Shown here: positions 2,750 to 55,553 of the stretch, one piece after another
Layout of the letters: every line of letters starts with the position of its first letter
Position numbering within the stretch: the stretch's first letter is position 1
From: Candidatus Micrarchaeia archaeon
GTDB taxonomy: Archaea; Micrarchaeota; Micrarchaeia; Anstonellales; J096
NCBI GenBank assembly: GCA_041500865.1
Contig: JBGQMY010000003.1
Coordinates: 11,333 to 75,332, forward strand
Length of the DNA: 64,000 nt
Direction of reading: 5' to 3'
The notes under the pieces: model-generated
What the model saw: the letters and a program-made list of their open reading frames with translations, nothing else
Told to the model about the DNA's origin: nothing
The model's database searches: none
Made by a program: the position numbers and the translations under genes

Positions 2750-3498
2750 GCGCCCTGGACTGGATAGCTTTGGCCATTGCCGGAATATACTCCAAGCTGC
2801 TTTCACTTGTCCAGCACCTTGGCACGCCGCTGCACGAGTCATGCCATTTTGTCGCCGCGTCGCTCGCCGGCCTAAGGGTCAGTGAGTTTGTGCCGTATTA
2901 CGCGCTTTCCAAGGACAGGAATGCGCTGAAGGCGCAGGGCGTACTGGGCTATGTCAGGCACGAGAAGGCAAGGGACGAGGCAGTCAACATAATAGTCGGC
3001 GCATCGCCCCTGCTTGCGCTTTGTTTCGTGATACTTCTTGCTGACGCATACCTTGCAGACATGTACGGGAAGGCGCTTGTCAGCATAGTCGCGCTCGTTT
3101 TCCTCACGCCCTCGCGTAAGGATACGTTTGAGGACTTCTCTGACGTGGGGGCCACGATCATGAACATTCCCCTCATAATATTCATAAGGCTCGTTGGCCT
3201 GCTTTTCAACTCAAACGTCTTGCTGGCGATGGCGTTCCACGTTTTGCTGGCAATAGCGGTCCTGCTCCTTGTCATTGCCATGAAAACGCTTGTCGTCGCG
3301 TTCCTGTTCGCGTCGCTCCTCACGCTGCTTTCGTACAGGATGGCAAACGGCATATTGCTGTTCATTTCCAAGATGCTGTTTTACCTGACATTTCCGCTGT
3401 CAACCATTTTCTGGGCCGCGTGCGCAATATCTTATTATTACCTTGGGACAGACTATTTCAGCGCGATAATCGGCTATGTCCACGACATCTGGCCGTAA
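2746..3498 (+). CDS. Membrane metallopeptidase, M50-like
   Basis: LHESCH (HExxH) motif plus multiple TM segments. Confidence 0.6.
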   Translation: MSALDWIALAIAGIYSKLLSLVQHLGTPLHESCHFVAASLAGLRVSEFVPYYALSKDRNALKAQGVLGYVRHEKARDEAVNIIVGASPLLALCFVILLADAYLADMYGKALVSIVALVFLTPSRKDTFEDFSDVGATIMNIPLIIFIRLVGLLFNSNVLLAMAFHVLLAIAVLLLVIAMKTLVVAFLFASLLTLLSYRMANGILLFISKMLFYLTFPLSTIFWAACAISYYYLGTDYFSAIIGYVHDIWP

Positions 3499-3505
3499 TA
3501 CCCCC

Positions 3506-3585
3506 TGAAGCCTTTTTGGAAAAGGCTCCAGCGAAGCTTTTTAGAAAAAAGCTTCAGCAAAAACGGGCCTTTTTTGGAAAGGCGC
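3506..3585. repeat. Tandem palindromic repeats between convergent genes (possible terminator)
   Basis: GAAGCCTTTTTGGAAAAGGCTCC and GAAGCTTTTTAGAAAAAAGCTTC; same module at 19236-19260 and 54700-54722. Confidence 0.65.
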
Positions 3586-3586
3586 A

Positions 3587-4615
3587 TCAGTTCATCTGGT
3601 CGTAATACTCCTTGAGCCTTCCGTGCATGAGGTAAGGCGCGCTCTTTAGCGACTCTATGTCCCTGCTCCCCGTAAGGAACATGCAATGCCTGAACTGGCG
3701 CGTCCACATATTGACTGTTTCGTCAAGCCTCTTTTCCTTGTGCGCCTTGAGGAAAGGCATGGCTGCCCCGAACATGTCCGCGCCTATCGCGAATGATTTT
3801 GCGCCGTCTATGCCGCTCCTTATGCCGCCTGTCGCGATTATCTTTGCGAACGGGGATGACATGATTATTGAAAGCGCCGTTGGTATGCCCCATTCTTCAA
3901 ACCCCGGAATCTTGCCGTTTCTTAGATACTCGACCTTGCTCCAGCTTGTGCCTCCGGAACCTGCAACGTCAATCCATTCTATCCCGATTTTGCCAAGCCG
4001 GAAAGCAACGCCCTTGACTATGCCGCCGCCGACCTCCTTTACGATGACCGGTATTTTCAGTGCGTCCTTGAGCGCCGCTATTTTTTCCTGCACGCCTTCC
4101 CAGTCCTTGTCGCCTTCAGGCTGAATCAGCTCCTGGAGCGGATTGAGGTGCACGGCAATTGCATCAGCCTCTATGGATGATGCGGCCTCGTCTATCTTCA
4201 TTATTTCGTACCTTTTGAGCTGGATTCCGCCGATGTTGCCTATCACAAATGCGCCAGGATGCTCTTTCTTCACGTAATAGGTGTCCCTAAGATTTGGGTT
4301 TTCAACCATCGCCCTCTGGCTTCCGAGGCCCATCGGTATCTTGTACTTTTCCGACATTTCCGCAAACGCGAGGTTTATGGGCTTCGCGCCCTTGAACCCG
4401 CCTGTCATCGCTGAAATCAGCAGCGGATGGCTGAACGCCTTTCCAAGGAACTTCGCCTTTGTCGATATTGAATCGTAATTGATTTCAGGCATGGCATTGT
4501 AAAGAAGCTCAACGTCGTCCAGGCCAGTGGCCTTGGAATATTGGGATTCCTTCCTCAGCGAGGCGAGGATGTGCTCCTCCTTCCTTTTCTCTATCTGGCT
4601 CGTGTCCTTGGCCAT
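3587..4615 (-). CDS. fni: Type 2 isopentenyl-diphosphate isomerase
   Basis: RKEEH, AMTGG, GSQR, HLNPLQE, VKEVG, GGTSW motifs; start taken at MAKDTSQ. Confidence 0.95.
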   Translation of the reverse strand: MAKDTSQIEKRKEEHILASLRKESQYSKATGLDDVELLYNAMPEINYDSISTKAKFLGKAFSHPLLISAMTGGFKGAKPINLAFAEMSEKYKIPMGLGSQRAMVENPNLRDTYYVKKEHPGAFVIGNIGGIQLKRYEIMKIDEAASSIEADAIAVHLNPLQELIQPEGDKDWEGVQEKIAALKDALKIPVIVKEVGGGIVKGVAFRLGKIGIEWIDVAGSGGTSWSKVEYLRNGKIPGFEEWGIPTALSIIMSSPFAKIIATGGIRSGIDGAKSFAIGADMFGAAMPFLKAHKEKRLDETVNMWTRQFRHCMFLTGSRDIESLKSAPYLMHGRLKEYYDQMN

Positions 4616-6083: not shown

Positions 6084-6962
6084 ATGGAATTGGCAAAAGT
6101 CGATCAGATTTTGTTCGGGATAGTTTTTCTGGCAGGGAGCTTCATGTTTGTATTGATCTCCCTTTGTCTGACTTTATTACCAGGCGGCTATATCCTTAAT
6201 TCGCTGCCTGAATGGGTTCTATTGGGAGCATTCTTTATTTTTTTTATCGAGGCAGTAGCATGGTGGCTAAAGGGAACCCTTGCCATGGACGAAGCAAAGC
6301 TTGAACAAAAGAGCGCCACCCTCTGGTCGCAGTTGGGCCGCTTTCGCCAATATTTGGATGCGTTTAGGGTCGTGATCACTTCAATATTACTCCTGATAAT
6401 TTTTGGCGTTGCTTTTTATTACATATTCAACAGTCTCAAATCAGGAATGGTCTTCAGAATCCAATTCTTTGTTTTGCTTGCGACATATGTCTTTTATCTT
6501 GTCGTAAGGAGCCCGCTATTGTCATTTCTGGAAAAACTGTTTGCGCCAGCAAGCAAGATGTTCCGCGGCAACCTGCCAAGCTACACGTTGAATGGCAGTG
6601 GGCTGACAATAGATCTTAATATAAGGAATCTATGGGGCCCGTCAGAGAAATATCTGGTTAATATAAACTTTGATGAGCTTGATGAGATAAGGACATTCAC
6701 GTTCCAAGAAGCAAGCACATTCCTTAGATATAAGATAGGTCCTAATGCTGAACTACTGGCAAAGCAAGCAAAGGGCATGTACAGTTACATGAAACATGAG
6801 ATACCGAGGCCATCAACCTATATAGTACACGCTACTTCAAGCATCGGCAAAATCGTATTGCTAAGGGGGCCTGAACTTCTTTATTTTGTCGCTTTTGACA
6901 AGGACGACGTCAGCGACCTTCTGGACGCTTTTGAAAAATACAAGAAAAAGGCAGGAAAGTAA
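6084..6962 (+). CDS. Hypothetical membrane protein
   Basis: Four N-terminal hydrophobic segments; AT-rich. Confidence 0.65.
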   Translation: MELAKVDQILFGIVFLAGSFMFVLISLCLTLLPGGYILNSLPEWVLLGAFFIFFIEAVAWWLKGTLAMDEAKLEQKSATLWSQLGRFRQYLDAFRVVITSILLLIIFGVAFYYIFNSLKSGMVFRIQFFVLLATYVFYLVVRSPLLSFLEKLFAPASKMFRGNLPSYTLNGSGLTIDLNIRNLWGPSEKYLVNINFDELDEIRTFTFQEASTFLRYKIGPNAELLAKQAKGMYSYMKHEIPRPSTYIVHATSSIGKIVLLRGPELLYFVAFDKDDVSDLLDAFEKYKKKAGK

Positions 6963-6987
6963 GGTTTTGCATGCAAAGCCCCAACTA

Positions 6988-7005
6988 GGGGACATGTACC
7001 GTTAG
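6988..7005 (+). repeat. Direct repeat copy 2 of PAC2 3' end
   Basis: Encodes G-D-M-Y-R-stop like 5500-5517. Confidence 0.7.
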
Positions 7006-7070
7006 GCCTTGTTTGAATCAGCTTAAAAAAGAAAGAACTGGGTATCAAGAACACCTGCTTGGTTATTCTG

Positions 7071-8174
7071 TCATACGGCTAATTCCTTGGCAAATAGCCT
7101 ATTGAATCTTTCCACGACTCTTTTCCTGAAATTATAGCTATTTGCAAATCTGGCATAAGCAAGCCAGCCTTCCAGGCTTTTCACTATTTCTTCCCTGTTC
7201 ATCTCTCCTTTATCGCATTTCCGTTTGAACATGTCAAGGCGCTCCCAGATTCTTCTGGCATTGCTCTTCTTGAGAAGCCGGTACCCATGAAAAATCCTGA
7301 AGCCAAGAAATGCTATGCCCCGTTCCAATGGAATAATGCTGGACTTTTCAGGATGGAGCCTTATCTTGAGCCGGTATGCCAGAAACTCGCTTATTTCAGC
7401 GTTCCACATTTCAAGCATTTTCCTGTCCCTGTGCAGAATCACGAAATCATCCACATAGCGGATGTAATATCTGGCCCCAAGCCGCTCCTTTGCAAAATGG
7501 TCGAATCCGTTCAGGTATAGATTGGCAAAGAATTGCGAGGTCAGGTTTCCAAGGGGCATCCCTTTCCCATGAACTTCAGCTTTGTGGTTTGCCAATATCA
7601 TTCTTACCAATTGCATAATATCCGGATCCTTTATTTTACGGCTAATCATCTCCAATAGGATTTCATGTTCAACTGTCGCAAAATAATGCAGAATGTCCGC
7701 CTTGAGGGCATATCCGCAGCAAACGGATTCTTCATCGCTAGGCTCTTTTTCTGCTTTTGGCTTGCAGAAAGAGACCGCGCGCATGAACCGCTCCAGTCTC
7801 CGTATCGCATTATGCGTTCCCTTGCCTTTCCTGTTGGCAAATGAGTCAAAGATGAAATCCTTTTCAAAAATGGGCATTATGACGTTGCATAATGCATGGT
7901 GCACAACGCGGTCCCTGAAATGGGACGCGCTTATTTTTCTGGTCTTTGGGTCCCTTACGAGGAATACAGTTGGCGGGCGAGGCGAATAGGCAAATGCCTT
8001 CAGCTCGGATTCCAATTGCCTGAGATTATTTTCAAGATTGGATTCGAACTCAATTACATAATCCTTCAGCGTTTTCCTTTTTCTGGCTTTCTGAAATGCA
8101 AGCTTAAGGTTTTCATAGGAGCAAACCTGCGGATAAAGATGCCTGTAGGATTTCATGGGTTTCGCCAAGCGCAC
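7071..8174 (-). CDS. DGR-type reverse transcriptase
   Basis: PKTRKI, FRDRVVHHAL, RKGKGTH, ADILHYF, GMPLGNLTSQFFANLYL and YVDD motifs; directly downstream of a TR. Confidence 0.95.
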   Translation of the reverse strand: MRLAKPMKSYRHLYPQVCSYENLKLAFQKARKRKTLKDYVIEFESNLENNLRQLESELKAFAYSPRPPTVFLVRDPKTRKISASHFRDRVVHHALCNVIMPIFEKDFIFDSFANRKGKGTHNAIRRLERFMRAVSFCKPKAEKEPSDEESVCCGYALKADILHYFATVEHEILLEMISRKIKDPDIMQLVRMILANHKAEVHGKGMPLGNLTSQFFANLYLNGFDHFAKERLGARYYIRYVDDFVILHRDRKMLEMWNAEISEFLAYRLKIRLHPEKSSIIPLERGIAFLGFRIFHGYRLLKKSNARRIWERLDMFKRKCDKGEMNREEIVKSLEGWLAYARFANSYNFRKRVVERFNRLFAKELAV

Positions 8175-8185
8175 AGATAAATGCC

Positions 8186-8445
8186 CCTAGGGTGCAAGCC
8201 CAAGTCATTCCGAACGCATTGGACGGCCTGTAGTTCGCGTTGACGTTCTGCCTGTTGTTGCCGTTGTTGTTGACGTTGCGGACCAGAAGGCCTCAAGAGT
8301 AACCCGTCTGCCACAATGGCACTTTCGTGCCAACACCGCCGCTTCACGCTTTCAATCCATGATTTACTCAATGTCGCGGCTGAATCCCATGTCTGGCTTT
8401 AACCAGCACTGCAGACAGGTGTGTGGCCTAGGCTTGCACCCTAGG
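8186..8445 (-). ncRNA. Putative structured DGR template RNA containing the TR
   Basis: 15-bp inverted repeat 8186-8200/8431-8445, 10-bp helix 8302-8311/8411-8420, GAAA-tetraloop hairpin 8317-8332. Confidence 0.7.
8204..8292 (-). repeat. DGR template repeat (TR)
   Basis: 89 nt, nine AAC triplets; aligns without gaps to 8710-8798. Confidence 0.97.
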
Positions 8446-8471
8446 AATAGGGAAAAGGATGGAAAGCTTAT

Positions 8472-9383
8472 TTAAAGCGCTTTCCCTACCGCATCCAGGA
8501 ATTCCCTGATTGGCGCTACGATCTGGGCGTCGATTATGCCAGGCATCCTGCCAACAGCGCTTACAGCCCTATTATATGCGGCTTTCAGCTCATCAGCCGA
8601 GATGCCGGGCACTTTGATAATCGTCTCTTTTTCAGCCGGTTTTCCTGACTGAACATTAGAGGCAAGAAGCGCCTGGATTTTTTCGGTGTCCCCTTCGGGG
8701 ACTTCCAACGCCACCCCGAACGCACCGGACGGCCCGAAGTACGCGTAGACGCCCTGCCTGCCGTAGCCGAGGTCGTCGACGACGCGGACCAGAAGGCCCA
8801 CATATGAAGAACCATTCAGCCTCCAAAGATATCTTGCATCCGGGCTTTGCGGCACCTTGTCTCCATGCGGAACGCCTGTTTCCTTATGCGGCATGTACAA
8901 GCCATCAGGACCTGGGAATTCTGGAACCGGTATCAGCCTGTCTTTTGAAATGTCCAAAACCATTGAATCTCCGTCTTTCTGGAAATCTTTTGAGGTTAGA
9001 CCCAGTGCCACAAGCGCAACGTTCTTTTCGCCCTTATAATCCCCTGTTGTCGGCAAAACTATCCTTGAACCGTCTCCTGCGGAAAAGACTATCTCCTTTC
9101 CCAGTCTAACGCCTGGCTTTTCATAGGCGATTGAGGCGTCAACAGCGAAAGGCGTCATTGGAACCAAGCTTCTCCATGTCGCTCCAACGTTAAGCGCAAC
9201 ATCCGCTGTGTTATGGGATATGACTAGGCAATTGGTTCCATGCACATTGTTGAATTCCTCAACTAAAGGATGGGCATCAAAAAGCTTTGTTGTTCCGCTG
9301 TTCCTTAGAATCAGTATGTTCTTCTTTTGTCCGTTAGCCTCTAACTTTATCAGTTCCTTTCCAGCAATTTGGATTTGTGACAT
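8472..9383 (-). CDS. DGR target (variable) protein with internal VR
   Basis: Codons 196-225 (GLLVRVVDDLGYGRQGVYAYFGPSGAFGVA) are the VR. Confidence 0.92.
   Translation of the reverse strand: MSQIQIAGKELIKLEANGQKKNILILRNSGTTKLFDAHPLVEEFNNVHGTNCLVISHNTADVALNVGATWRSLVPMTPFAVDASIAYEKPGVRLGKEIVFSAGDGSRIVLPTTGDYKGEKNVALVALGLTSKDFQKDGDSMVLDISKDRLIPVPEFPGPDGLYMPHKETGVPHGDKVPQSPDARYLWRLNGSSYVGLLVRVVDDLGYGRQGVYAYFGPSGAFGVALEVPEGDTEKIQALLASNVQSGKPAEKETIIKVPGISADELKAAYNRAVSAVGRMPGIIDAQIVAPIREFLDAVGKAL
8688..8702 (-). promoter_or_regulatory. DGR target-recognition hairpin (GAA triloop)
   Basis: GTCCCC-GAA-GGGGAC, 7 nt downstream of the VR end. Confidence 0.8.
8710..8798 (-). repeat. DGR variable repeat (VR)
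   Basis: 20 mismatches to TR over 89 nt, all at TR adenines. Confidence 0.97.
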
Positions 9384-9492
9384 ACGATATATTGGGAACC
9401 AAAGGATTTAAAAAACACACCTTTTAACACAAGATTACACATAGATGCCGCTGTTAGAAAAACTAATAAACCTACCCCTAACATAAGCCTAT

Positions 9493-10074
9493 ATGTCCAA
9501 ACCGATAAAGGGAACACAGACGGAAAAGAACCTTCTCAAGGCATTTGCCGGCGAATCCCAGGCAAGGAACAGGTACACGTTCTTCGCGTCCGAGGCAAGG
9601 AAAGCCAATTATGAGCAGATATCCGCGATATTCCTTGAGACCGCAGAAAACGAGAAGGAGCACGCAAAAGTATTTTTCAAATACCTGGAAGGCGGGGATA
9701 CTAAGATAACTGCGACTTATCCTGCAGGAAGGATAGGCACGACCGCGGAGAACCTGCTTGAGGCGGCAGACGGCGAGAAGCTAGAATGGGGCACGCTATA
9801 CCCGGAGTTCGAGAAAGTCGCAAGGCAGGAAGGCTTTCCGGACGTTGCAAGCTCGTTCAAGGAGATAGCCGAAGTCGAGATGCACCACGAGCAGAGGTAC
9901 AGGGCGCTGCTGGACAACATCAAGACCGGCGCGGTGTTCAAGAGGAAAGGGGACGCCGTGAGGTGGAAGTGCAGGAACTGCGGCTACATCCACGAAGGGC
10001 CCGAGGCGCCAAACCAGTGCCCGGCATGCAAGCATCCGCAGGCGTATTACGAGCTGCTGTGCGACAACTTTTAG
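9493..10074 (+). CDS. rbr: Rubrerythrin
   Basis: [12 protein letters not shown], two ExxH motifs, C-terminal CxxC...CxxC rubredoxin-like domain. Confidence 0.95.
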
Positions 10075-10079
10075 ATTTT

Positions 10080-10553
10080 TCAGTTTAGCAGGAACACTGC
10101 CGCGTTCAGCAGCGCGGCAAAAGACACCCAAGCAATGTAAGGAGCCAGCAAAAGCCCGGCCGTCTTGGACACCTTATTGAATTCATTTATCGTCATTGCG
10201 ATTGAAGCCCAAAGCGCGATGATGCACAAAAGGCCCAGAAGCGGGGAATGCATGCCGAAGAAAAGGACAGACCATAAGACGTTAAGGATTAGCTGGACTG
10301 CAAATGCCGCCATGGCGCTTTTGGTTTCACGCGTTTTCCGTTCCATGAAAACCAGGTATGCGGCAATGCCCATCAGGATATATAGGATTGTCCAAACAGG
10401 CCCGAAGACCCAATTTGGAGGCGAGAAGAACGGCTTGTTGAGGCCGGCATACCAGCCTGTTATTGAGGGAAACGTGAAGATTGGGCCGATTGCGCCTGCA
10501 ATTAAGCAAACAACAACAAAAGCAACGGCGATTGCGGTGTCCCTTGCGTCCAT
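10080..10553 (-). CDS. tspO: TspO/MBR tryptophan-rich sensory protein
   Basis: WYAGLNKP, PPNWVFGPVWT, PYIAWVSFA motifs. Confidence 0.92.
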   Translation of the reverse strand: MDARDTAIAVAFVVVCLIAGAIGPIFTFPSITGWYAGLNKPFFSPPNWVFGPVWTILYILMGIAAYLVFMERKTRETKSAMAAFAVQLILNVLWSVLFFGMHSPLLGLLCIIALWASIAMTINEFNKVSKTAGLLLAPYIAWVSFAALLNAAVFLLN

Positions 10554-54758: not shown

Positions 54759-55553
54759 TTATTGCCTCAGCAGTTTTTCAGCAGCGTCTAGTTGCTCTTT
54801 TGTACCCCTGACTACAAGCGTGCCGTCGTCCTCTCTTGTTACTGTCATTTGTGCGGGCTTTGCTTCAAGCGCCCGCGCCCCCTTCGGGGTCCCACCCAAC
54901 GACGCCACCCCGAGAAGCGCGGACGACCCGTTGTTGAGGTTGACGTTCCTCCTGAAGTAGTAGTCGAGGAAGTTGTAGCCGCGGGCAACAGGGCCGACCC
55001 TCCCGGAACCATCAACCCGCCACAGACGGCTGGCTTGTGGGTTGCGGGAACCAATTTCCTTTCCTGTCGGTATGCCATGCTTGCCATCAAGAGGATACCA
55101 ACCGTCCTTTTCCGGGAAGTTGGGAATAATATCAATAACGTTTGATCTTATCATAATCTCCTTGCCGTCAATTTCAAGCGAGTAGTCCGGATGCTCTGAA
55201 ACCAGGATGGCGTTCTTCTCGCTTCCGTAGTCTCCTATTGGGAATATCCAGCGCTCCCTTGTTTCCGGGTCTGTGTATACGATTGCCTTAAGCTCCTTGC
55301 TGAACATCTTGCTCCTGTTGAATTCAGTTCTAGGCTCGACGTATGCGGCCATCGTGCCTGTCCAGCACGGAAAAACCTCAACTATTGATTTATATCCATC
55401 TCCTGCAAACGCCTTTTCCATCTTTGCGTTTGAGGCGATTATCATTCCCGTCTCTGCGACCCTTTGGATTGCAACTTTGGCTGAAACGCCCTCTTTGTAG
55501 GGTATGAATGCCTTTAAGCCCTTTTCACTTGTCAGTTGGACTGTTCCTGCCAT
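54759..55553 (-). CDS. Paralog of the DGR target protein with VR-like region (54903-54995)
   Basis: Shares FPxxDGxY..GxPxG..LWR..GS..VG...R...R..V......S...GVA with 8472-9383; run of NNC codons; CCCC-GAA-GGGG hairpin at 54879-54889. Confidence 0.8.
   Translation of the reverse strand: MAGTVQLTSEKGLKAFIPYKEGVSAKVAIQRVAETGMIIASNAKMEKAFAGDGYKSIVEVFPCWTGTMAAYVEPRTEFNRSKMFSKELKAIVYTDPETRERWIFPIGDYGSEKNAILVSEHPDYSLEIDGKEIMIRSNVIDIIPNFPEKDGWYPLDGKHGIPTGKEIGSRNPQASRLWRVDGSGRVGPVARGYNFLDYYFRRNVNLNNGSSALLGVASLGGTPKGARALEAKPAQMTVTREDDGTLVVRGTKEQLDAAEKLLRQ

Follow-up and report, generated by a model that had tools for sequence, protein, structure and literature searches.

A probable archaeal-type DGR on a Micrarchaeota chromosome and the RT-16 RNA motif beside its template repeat

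A gene for a reverse transcriptase (RT), two similar short repeats and a gene that contains one of them lie close together on the minus strand of a 64,000-nucleotide stretch of archaeal DNA (the window). The questions raised by this locus are whether its elements form a complete diversity-generating retroelement (DGR), and whether the position of the variable repeat (VR), which is inside the target gene and not at its end, is an anomaly. The locus is very probably a chromosomal DGR of the archaeal (DPANN) type. The host genome is about 1 Mb in size, and the homologues of its proteins are labelled Micrarchaeota. Read along the minus strand, the locus consists of the target gene with the VR and a hairpin, a TATA-like box, the RNA motif RT-16, the template repeat (TR), a 30-nt gap and the RT gene.

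The TR (8204..8292, minus strand) is 89 nt long and contains 27 adenines and 10 AAY codons. It aligns without gaps with the VR (8710..8798, minus strand), and the likeness stops at both borders of the repeat. Realignment reproduced the 20 mismatches reported in the sequence-only reading of this DNA. All are on TR adenines (20 of 27; 13 A>G, 6 A>T and 1 A>C), and mismatches elsewhere, which that reading had named as evidence against a DGR, were found at none of the 62 non-A positions. The probability that 20 mismatches would all fall by chance on 27 adenines among 89 positions is 2.2e-14. The entire assembly of 1,043,478 bases was scanned on both strands for 89-mers matching the non-A positions of the TR with up to 12 mismatches. 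The TR itself and the VR were the only matches, so that the genome has a single TR and a single VR.

The 3' end of the TR, GGAATGAC, represents IMH*, and the non-variable end of the VR, GGGGTGGC (8710-8717), represents IMH. The final three A-to-G differences between them are a fixed contrast. Because this AAT/GGT contrast of TR and VR recurs in 20 of the 24 related cassettes, the three differences belong to the IMH*/IMH asymmetry and not to random mutagenesis, leaving 17 mutagenic differences between the repeats. A GC-rich hairpin, GTCCCC-GAA-GGGGAC (8688..8702, minus strand), begins 8 nt past the VR within the target coding sequence, where it encodes VPEGD. A perfect hairpin of 5-7 bp is located 0-14 nt past the VR in 16 of the 24 related cassettes. 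The stems vary in sequence among the loci, yet remain complementary, and 9 of the 16 have a GAA loop. A repeat pair that differs at TR adenines, a VR in a coding target, the IMH/IMH* asymmetry and a downstream GC hairpin are all features by which a DGR is recognized.

As far as column entropy indicates, the variability of the target family follows the AAY codons of the TR: among 46 target homologues, the columns of the 10 AAY codons have 3.15 bits and those of the 13 A-free codons 1.51 bits. There are 14 variable codons in the VR (10 of them AAY), giving about 8e13 possible proteins, and a stop codon is impossible at any of the 14.

The RT reading frame (7071..8174, minus strand) encodes 367 residues when translated from GTG 8174 and matches Pfam RVT_1 with an E-value of 3e-17. 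The start codon is likely to be ATG 8156 rather than GTG 8174, because the alignment with Brt, the RT of the Bordetella phage BPP-1, opens at residue 8. The frame is open and, as noticed earlier, carries an intact YVDD and the sequence LGNLTSQFFAN downstream of the TR. The latter aligns with IGSLTSQLFAN of Brt, and the motif [I/L]GxxxSQ is diagnostic of the DGR lineage. BLASTP aligns the RT with Brt at 32% identity over 354 columns (E 4e-57). Its closest solved relative, at 166.5 bits, is 8ub7_A, a 328-aa chain entitled 'Reverse transcriptase', which we take to be Brt from its equal length (328 aa) and similar score. The group II-type RTs reach 74.8, 71.5 and 69.4 bits. Matches were found in 174 phage records, including Vibrio phage VP585, ANMV-1 and five Bordetella records. 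Judged by its pairwise scores to Brt and 8ub7_A, the RT is of the DGR type, which, together with the A-only mismatches of TR and VR, supports the original description of the locus as a complete DGR.

The target gene (8472..9383, minus strand) encodes a variable protein of 303 aa. Its predicted C-type-lectin-fold core spans residues ~8-228, and its C-terminal tail comprises residues 226-303 (coding positions 8475-8708, minus strand). The AF2 model has a pLDDT of 91.7 and a pTM of 0.79. The best VIA-align match to the model is AvpA (5ioo_B), with 162 residues aligned, an rmsd of 3.7 and a Z of 8.0, a middling value that is, according to the tool's own note, at the level usual for best hits. It is followed by TaqVP of Thermus aquaticus (5vf4_A; Z 7.7, 177 residues aligned), so that DGR variable proteins occupy the top two places among 48,161 chains. 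TaqVP is likewise a DGR variable protein with a C-type-lectin fold, but its sequence identity to the target is 10%, its host is bacterial and it is longer (381 residues). About 40 C-type lectin domains come next, with Z of 6-7.5 over model residues 9-235, and DGR variable proteins and lectin-type domains, covering model residues of about 1-240, make up 45 of the 50 best structural matches listed. Foldseek found nothing in the PDB at E<=0.001, and its only hint was the C-type lectin domain of DEC205 at a probability of 0.3-0.47. On the evidence of the model, the target is an AvpA-like DGR variable protein with a C-type-lectin fold, whose last strands are formed by the VR.

Searches with the sequence identify no named family. 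The target-family profile found no solved relative among the PDB sequences, giving two chance-level matches and none to 5ioo at E<=10. Pfam contains no family that matches the target at E<=1, bearing out the earlier remark that it has no FGE (FGE-sulfatase) or DUF1566 signature, and NCBIfam returned nothing. Among 46 members of the target family, no lectin-type Pfam family was found at E<=0.01, and there was a lone marginal match to the unrelated HEM4 (E 0.0045). In the ESM Atlas, the nearest clusters are archaeal proteins without names, and the tail on its own (residues 228-303) gave no usable match. The target may be cytoplasmic, as the sequence-only reading proposed. The maximum Kyte-Doolittle mean over 19 residues is 1.14, indicating no membrane segment. 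Inspection by eye showed no hydrophobic stretch at the N-terminus, a manner of inspection by which archaeal export signals could be missed. The target family, which is without a Pfam entry, comprises 46 homologue clusters, with 374 representatives at 50% identity (E<=1e-3); among 401 genomes of the phylum, 81 carry it.

The VR opens in frame at codon 196 and ends at codon 225 of the target, leaving 78 residues after it, as the sequence-only reading stated. Three helices are predicted in this region of the AF2 model, in keeping with the helical module that had been proposed. The judgement that an internal VR is unusual did not hold. In 20 of the 24 related cassettes, 49-82 residues follow the VR, and all 46 close homologues extend at least 15 residues beyond it. 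Handa et al. 2016 (PMC5006420) describe an internal VR as common in archaeal DGR variable proteins. They place the VR of AvpA at residues 181-203, followed by 46 residues with two predicted helices, and the homing hairpin within the coding region of the AvpA gene. Because such a tail is common in the class, the internal VR with a constant tail is an already published class trait of archaeal DGR targets and no anomaly.

The likeness to AvpA and to the other DGRs of Nanoarchaeota (DUSEL4) extends beyond this trait. According to Paul et al. 2015 (PMC4372165) and Handa et al. 2016 and to PDB 5ioo, these systems also have a VR that comes close to the C-terminus without reaching it, and a predicted helical extension beyond the VR. 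Inside the target gene is the homing hairpin, with its GRA triloop, and the IMH GGGGT is paired with the IMH* GGAAT; Paul et al. describe both this pair and the GRA-loop hairpins. The hosts are DPANN archaea with small genomes in both cases, and AvpA shares with the target, as modelled here, a C-type-lectin fold outside the FGE subclass. The two proteins differ in that their sequence similarity is undetectable by the profile-to-sequence comparison mentioned above. The tail has 78 residues here and 46 in AvpA, and the VR has 30 codons, 14 of them variable, compared to 27 residues, 12 of them variable, in AvpA.

The structured RNA motif RT-16 (Rfam RF03019; 8294..8445, minus strand) is directly 5' of the TR. 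It matches the full model (1-158) with 62.4 bits, compared to a gathering score of 50, and an E-value of 2e-9, and is thus a member of the family. RT-16 is an orphan motif that was reportedly found in 2017 near RT genes, and to our knowledge no role has been assigned to it. Within the order, 29 of 151 genomes contain it, compared to none of 14 control genomes. A TR is located just 3' of RT-16 in 24 of 30 RT-16 loci, and an RT homologue is downstream on the same strand in 27. The remaining six loci showed no TR/VR pair, four of them being cut upstream and two not. The recurrent arrangement suggests, as a lead, that RT-16 belongs to the DGR cassette, a fresher point than the internal VR. The literature search produced no link of RT-16 or RF03019 to DGRs in the texts available, although the Weinberg 2017 supplement, Paul 2017 or the bioRxiv supplement may already place RT-16 or the target family in DGRs. 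The DGR of the archaeal virus ANMV-1 has no Rfam motif at E<=0.1.

The accessory protein Avd is present in the prototype DGR, but not in all DGRs, and is required in the Bordetella phage system. A search of the present genome, which is 92% complete, for Avd (PF05635) gave nothing at E<=0.1. The only ORF between the target and the RT is a 72-aa frame (8153-8371, minus strand) over RT-16 and the TR. It was considered as a stand-in for Avd and set aside because the conservation of this stretch is that of an RNA, related loci carrying insertions that vary in length. A TATA-like box, CTTTAAATAAG (8467..8477, minus strand), overlaps the target stop codon and ends 24 nt before the 5' end of RT-16. 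Many of the 30 related loci have, by eye, A/T-rich boxes at a similar distance, and the box may be the promoter of the DGR RNA.

The 5' end of RT-16 (within 8428-8447, minus strand), which is followed by an invariant GCCACA, appears to form a long-range helix with the 20 nt directly 3' of the TR (8184..8203, minus strand), located in the 30-nt gap before the RT frame. The minimum free energy fold of 8150-8480 pairs these two segments, and the energy of the duplex is -37.7 kcal/mol. Covariation across 24 loci supports the pairing, with a score of 0.318 compared to 0.212 for shuffled alignments. The fraction of helix cells paired is 70.1%, compared to 62.5 +/- 1.3 in shuffles, and there are 63 double-sided changes, compared to 34.2 +/- 5.3. 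None of 500 shuffles reached the observed value in any measure except 'pairs with a change on both sides', which was reached by 11 of the 500. The slid control is biased towards the helix, whose definition came from the sequence of the window itself. Inspection by eye for a BPP-1-style primer strand, a segment of RT-16 complementary to the last 10 nt of the TR, revealed nothing convincing. The available texts of Paul et al. 2015 (PMC4372165) and Handa et al. 2016 (PMC5006420) mention neither RT-16 nor the long-range helix.

The BPP-1 DGR (mtd-avd-TR-Sp-brt) has, besides its homologous RT, adenine-specific differences between TR and VR, IMH and IMH*, a GC hairpin past the VR and a target with a C-type-lectin fold. 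Its TR is also bracketed by mutually pairing RNA segments, described as the avd:Sp 'cPRT Stop' duplex in a preprint (bioRxiv 10.1101/2023.10.23.563531). The structured RNA of BPP-1, RF03022 (2750-2882), is 3' of the TR (2887-3020), between the TR and brt, whereas here RF03019 precedes the TR on its 5' side and the RT follows the TR after a gap of only 30 nt. BPP-1 has Avd, and none was found here. Furthermore, VR1 of BPP-1 (3443-3576) reaches the C-terminal end of Mtd (gene 3438-4583), unlike the internal VR of the present target.

The order of the RNA elements is also that of retrons. Retron msr-msd RNA has a 5' strand of a helix, a structured RNA, a template whose 3' end abuts the closing helix, the 3' strand of this helix and then the RT gene. 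Part of this layout is given in PMC8867640. The likeness, which is one of layout only, and the top NCBIfam model for the RT, the group II RT/maturase TIGR04416, would fit an RT derived from a retron or a group II intron, the resemblance of TR and VR being an unrelated duplication. Such an origin is extremely unlikely. The TIGR04416 score of 149 bits is below the cut-off of 300, the retron model NF038233 gives 43.5 bits against a cut-off of 235, and a search of 6500-10500 at E<=1 matched no group II intron RNA domain. In direct comparison, the 328-aa DGR-type RT reaches 166.5 bits and group II RTs 75 or less, so that pairwise and model scores both speak against the grouping with retrons or group II introns that the sequence-only reading had named as its refutation. 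For the template there is a cognate VR that differs from it only at adenines (P 2e-14), and no msDNA is known for this template. A better, although still unlikely, alternative is an intact-looking DGR that is now silent or a fossil, with a VR written in the past and since fixed. Contigs of runs X2 (8566-8798) and X3 (8663-8816), which have different study codes, carry a VR identical to that of the window (0 differences each), but all four runs (X1-X4) are assembled contigs, which report the consensus and drop rare variants, and a single population may underlie the runs. Small contigs of X1 and X4, with 6-18 differences, continue into dissimilar sequence and are read as relatives. The negative search for Avd also fits a silent element, as does a paralogue of the target in the window (54759-55553), which has a VR-like stretch and a hairpin with no TR anywhere in the assembly and shows that targets can outlive their element. 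Against silence stand the open RT frame with its YVDD, the intact TR, IMH/IMH*, hairpin, RT-16 and long-range helix, and the 62 non-A positions of TR and VR, which are still 100% identical and argue for recent copying.

The long-range helix can be doubted separately. Its two strands might be alike by chance or conservation, with the 5' end of RT-16 forming only the local hairpin P1. In the Rfam consensus, a local hairpin indeed occupies RT-16 positions 1-33. The sequence is almost identical at many of the loci (CCTAGGTGCAAGCC / GGCTTGCATTCTAG), and strands from different loci therefore also form strong duplexes; in 8 of the 24 loci at least 9 of 23 cross-locus pairings are as stable as the locus' own or more so. 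The divergent loci, however, retain complementarity, including the loop letters (TGTAGGCAAG/CTTGCCTACA, TTGCAGGTTAG/CTTAACCTGCAA and GTCCCAGC/GCTGGGAC), and the covariation measures exceed those of the shuffles as given above. The local P1 hairpin does not exceed shuffles (0.284 compared to 0.287, reached by 267 of 500) in an alignment that was not fitted to that hairpin. A helix without function is rather improbable.

In an active DGR of the archaeal type, the RNA would begin near 8445 and run through RT-16 and the TR. RT-16 would fold, and the pairing of its 5' end with the 20 nt that adjoin the TR on its 3' side, which covariation supports, would close RT-16 and the TR in one loop. Starting at the 3' end of the TR, the RT would copy it with misincorporation opposite adenines, as the A-only differences and the family of the enzyme suggest. 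The cDNA would then replace the VR, with the direction set by IMH (GGGGTGGC) as against IMH* (GGAATGAC) and by the GC hairpin 8 nt downstream; these elements are present, and their function is taken from the Bordetella phage work. The predicted outcome is that 14 codons vary, in the last strands of a binding domain that resembles AvpA and has a C-type-lectin fold. A more speculative proposal, possible but doubtful, is that RT-16 marks an Avd-free class of archaeal DGRs with a retron-like layout, in which the structured RNA is 5' of the template. The helix between the RNA 5' end and the TR 3' flank might then be the primer:template duplex, with priming from a nucleotide of GCCACA, and the basal helix of RT-16 at the TR 5' border might be the stop for reverse transcription. 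If correct, an orphan Rfam family would gain a function, and DGRs would have a second, permuted way of self-priming their cDNA synthesis. An RT and one RNA would make a compact system for testing DGR priming and stop without Avd. For specialists, the RNA side may matter in that RT-16 accompanies DGR cassettes at 24 of 30 loci, on the other side of the template than the RNA element of the Bordetella phage.

The first two scans of the best 30 target-family loci, taken with 1.5-kb flanks, found a TR/VR pair only at the window's locus and at L018. The scarcity of pairs near these 30 loci suggests that most family members do not adjoin a TR. A further locus, L008, yielded its TR/VR pair, as L051, when the scanning window was set to 50 nt.

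The cassette is a complete diversity-generating retroelement (DGR) of the published archaeal type. The template repeat (TR, 8204-8292, minus strand) and the variable repeat (VR, 8710-8798, minus strand) align without gaps over 89 nt, and the VR is in frame with the 303-residue open reading frame 8472-9383 (minus strand), the target, beginning at its codon 196 and leaving 78 residues downstream of the repeat. All 20 mismatches are at TR adenines (20 of 27; 13 A>G, 6 A>T and 1 A>C); the 62 non-adenine positions show none, and the similarity ends at both borders. The probability that 20 mismatches would be confined to adenines by chance is 2.2e-14 (hypergeometric). Realignment and inspection of the reading frame therefore upheld, as written, the gapless alignment, the adenine-only mismatches and the position of the VR inside a 303-residue frame noted in the sequence-only reading. 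Fourteen TR codons (ten AAY, TAC, CAG and two AGG) are subject to adenine variation; by computation they encode about 8.3e13 proteins and can never give a stop codon. In the source assembly (1,043,478 bases in 36 contigs, 92% complete) no further TR or VR copy was detected: BLAST returned the TR, the VR and three short chance matches, and a scan blind to adenine positions returned only the TR and this VR.

The reverse transcriptase (RT) is encoded by the open reading frame 7071-8174 (minus strand), which matches Pfam RVT_1 (E 3e-17) and contains YVDD. Its best match among sequences of solved structures is 8ub7_A, 'Reverse transcriptase' (328 residues, E 7e-48, 166.5 bits), which we take to be the Bordetella phage Brt complex; group II-type RTs score 74.8, 71.5 and 69.4 bits and Drt3a scores 24 bits. 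Aligned directly with Brt (NC_005357), the enzyme is 32% identical across 354 columns (E 4e-57), and its LGNLTSQFFAN lies opposite IGSLTSQLFAN of Brt. The NCBIfam group II and retron models score 149 and 43.5 bits, below their cut-offs of 300 and 235, respectively. Judged from these pairwise scores, the enzyme groups with neither group II introns nor retrons, an affinity that would have spoken against a DGR. A tblastn search of phages matched 174 records, five of them from Bordetella, and the matches include Vibrio phage VP585 (39%) and the archaeal virus ANMV-1 (37%, E 4e-68). The ATG at 8156 is probably a better candidate for the RT start than position 8174, because the Brt alignment begins at residue 8. 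Outside the window, the same genome has a further, distant match to the RT at C36:61-351 (minus strand; 31% identity, residues 201-294, E 1.6e-7), within a 387-residue open frame on a 2,413-base contig.

The sequence-only reading had overlooked an RNA element. The region 8294-8445 (minus strand) matches the full RT-16 model (Rfam RF03019) with 62.4 bits against a gathering score of 50 (E 2e-9), and ends one base ahead of the TR. The motifs RT-1 to RT-19 were introduced as lying near RT genes; RT-10 is the only one tied in that account to a DGR, that of Bordetella phage BPP-1, where it is positioned between TR and RT, and its authors speculated that other RT motifs may act in other DGRs (Weinberg et al. 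2017). Within the order, RT-16 was detected in 29 of 151 genomes (26 above the cut-off), compared to none of 14 control genomes; a phylum-wide sample of 151 genomes yielded it in 19, some of them from other orders of the class. Of the resulting 30 loci, this one included, 24 have a TR/VR pair with adenine-specific differences. In these cassettes the TR is just 3' of RT-16, starting -4 to +84 nt from its end (within 4 nt in 11), and the VR is upstream, within the preceding gene. Four of the other six loci are truncated upstream and two are not. An RT homolog (50-70% identity) follows on the same strand in 27 of the 30 loci, and full-length RT matches start 12-35 nt past the TR. The layout is identical in two of three extra RT-16 loci from another order. 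In four related loci (L045, L051, L056 and L059) the TR is interrupted by about 40-50 nt of inserted sequence (columns about 540-590 of the alignment), …GGAGTA…CTGG…CCAGTATTGCTGTGAAAGG, which is hairpin-capable, and the ungapped match between TR and VR is confined to the portion 3' of the insertion. A 2026 paper describes sarcin-ricin-like internal loops in a number of RT-associated motifs, RT-10 (the BPP-1 DGR RNA) and RT-16 among them. The RT-16 element of the window has the letters AGUA…GAA. In the Rfam families RT-10, RT-14 and RT-16 to RT-19 such loops could be a shared RT-docking module.

The RT-16 RNA and the TR are bracketed by a probable long-range helix. The 20 nt at the 5' end of RT-16 (8428-8447, minus strand) are complementary to the 20 nt abutting the TR 3' end (8184-8203, minus strand); the pairing is present in the minimum free energy fold and the duplex has an energy of -37.7 kcal/mol. 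The 20 pairs were counted on a MAFFT alignment of the 24 loci against 500 shuffles, with the helix defined from the window's own sequence and near-identical sequence present in many loci. Paired cells amount to 70.1% compared to 62.5 +/- 1.3 in shuffles, cells changed on both sides to 63 compared to 34.2 +/- 5.3, and the covariation score to 0.318 compared to 0.212, none of these values being reached in 500 shuffles; slid controls score 0.012-0.172. Changes on both sides occur in 17 of the 20 pairs, compared to 13.2 in shuffles (11 of 500). Loci of differing sequence keep the pairing, even at letters that would form the loop of the RT-16 local hairpin, which on the same alignment, one not fitted to that hairpin, does no better than shuffles. 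In 8 of the 24 loci at least 9 of the 23 cross-locus pairings are as stable as the locus' own, or more so. The 5' strand is immediately followed by GCCACA, which shows little or no variation among the 24 loci.

The order of these parts is permuted relative to BPP-1, which has mtd(VR)-avd-TR-structured RNA-brt. The BPP-1 structured RNA (RF03022, 2750-2882) is 3' of the TR (2887-3020), whereas here it lies on the 5' side, and the TR and the RT frame, with no spacer between them, are just 30 nt apart. Furthermore, Avd (PF05635) gave no match at E<=0.1 in the 92%-complete genome, which apparently lacks this protein, unlike BPP-1. Segments up- and downstream of the BPP-1 TR are described as pairing in a 'cPRT Stop' duplex (bioRxiv 10.1101/2023.10.23.563531). 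Thus a template-bracketing helix is already known in principle. The window's layout is helix strand, structured RNA, template, helix strand and RT. This is also the order of the retron msr-msd RNA, and we infer that the helix might be a primer:template duplex. It is the RT-16 link and the permuted RNA layout that merit the attention of specialists.

The internal position of the VR, regarded as unusual in the sequence-only reading, turned out to be a class trait of archaeal DGR targets. AvpA, a Nanoarchaeota DGR variable protein, has 46 residues after its VR, predicted to form two helices and disordered in the crystal, and its gene has a hairpin/cruciform inside the coding sequence of these residues (Handa et al. 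2016, PMC5006420). The same archaeal DGRs are reported to have TGGGGT at the VR 3' end (IMH), TGGAAT at the TR 3' end (IMH*) and GRA-triloop hairpins within the target gene (Paul et al. 2015, PMC4372165). The window shares all three features: residues after the VR, 3' ends reading GGGGTGGC (VR) and GGAATGAC (TR), and a hairpin, GTCCCC-GAA-GGGGAC (8688-8702, minus strand), 8 nt past the VR and encoding VPEGD. The AAT/GGT contrast is kept in 20 of the 24 cassettes, so three of the window's 20 adenine mismatches are the fixed IMH/IMH* difference and not mutagenesis. In 16 of the 24, a perfect GC-rich hairpin with a stem of 5-7 bp begins no more than 14 nt from the VR; the stem sequences vary between loci yet remain complementary, and nine of these 16 hairpins have a GAA loop. 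The VR is followed by 49-82 residues in 20 cassettes, the remaining four (6, 19, 110 and 457) representing another cassette type or cut or mis-extended repeats. Among the 46 closest homologs, at least 45 residues follow in 15, 15-30 in 29 and fewer than 15 in none. The tails of the 24 cassettes are of at least three types (…IIVKGVTxEE…LEALxIKE, …LIxRGTxEQLxAAxRLLExL and the window's …IIKVPGISADELKAAYNRAV…), all with a short strand followed by a glycine and a helix; neither a fold nor a function could be assigned to these tails.

The target has no match in Pfam or NCBIfam, in accord with the earlier failure to recognize an FGE/DUF1566 signature, and its 46 relatives match no lectin-type family, the sole match being a marginal and unrelated HEM4 (E 0.0045). 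An AlphaFold2 model from the 46-row alignment (pLDDT 91.7, pTM 0.79) has strands to residue 227 and helices at 230-246, 263-278 and 286-302. Foldseek gave no match at E<=0.001. The structure prediction proposed earlier as a check for a C-type-lectin fold did produce such matches when the model was compared with 48,161 chains by VIA-align. The top match is AvpA (5ioo_B; Z 8.0, middling by VIA-align's own note, rmsd 3.7, 162 residues), the second is TaqVP, a Thermus DGR variable protein (5vf4_A; Z 7.7, 177 residues), and about 40 C-type lectin domains follow at Z 6-7.5, all over model residues about 9-235. Because the list is consistent and headed by two DGR variable proteins, the clear reading of the predicted model is a C-type-lectin core. 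The target adds a new member to the AvpA-like lectin-fold class; a family profile run against PDB sequences found no sequence-level link to AvpA.

The 46 homologs (clusters at 90% identity) carry a source name in three cases, always 'Candidatus Micrarchaeota archaeon'. Their column entropy is 3.15 bits at AAY codons, 1.84 at six other adenine-containing codons and 1.51 at 13 codons without adenine; therefore the whole family varies at TR-adenine positions. The family comprises 374 representatives at 50% identity (E<=1e-3) and is present in 81 of 401 genomes of the phylum, reaching six or more copies per genome. Most members do not adjoin a TR; among the best 30 loci only the window's own, L018 and L008 (= L051) do. 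In two of nine genomes the VR of a remote member fits the genome's own TR with one non-adenine mismatch (22 and 17 adenine mismatches), whereas the best fit in 72 cross-genome controls has at least nine non-adenine mismatches. Remote targets therefore exist in this family. These two, L014 (G086:C1) and L023 (G037:C79), are on other contigs and their VRs fit an RT-16-linked TR. The window itself contains a 264-residue paralog (54759-55553, minus strand) that is 28% identical to the target across 185 residues (E 2e-15). In this paralog a VR-like stretch, similar to the family TR consensus, is followed by a GACCCC-GAA-GGGG(G)C-type hairpin and a different tail, ending …LVVRGTKEQLDAAEKLLRQ. No TR in the assembly fits it, apart from one spurious A-rich match, and the paralog is an orphan or fossil target.

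An A/T-rich box, CTTTAAATAAG (8467-8477, minus strand), overlaps the stop codon of the target, and 24 nt separate its end from the 5' end of RT-16. It fits a candidate archaeal promoter for the DGR RNA, and many related loci have, by eye, such boxes at a similar distance. The perfect identity of the 62 non-adenine positions argues for recent copying from TR to VR. VR alleles were compared on assembled contigs of four sequencing runs (X1-X4). The X2 (8566-8798) and X3 (8663-8816) contigs carry the window's VR with no differences, and an X4 contig, with 18 differences and three gaps, is read as a relative. A 171-nt X1 contig over the TR (8193-8309) has 11 differences and four gaps, and its loose ends resemble sequencing-adapter sequence; it probably represents either an assembly artefact or the TR of a related DGR from that sample.
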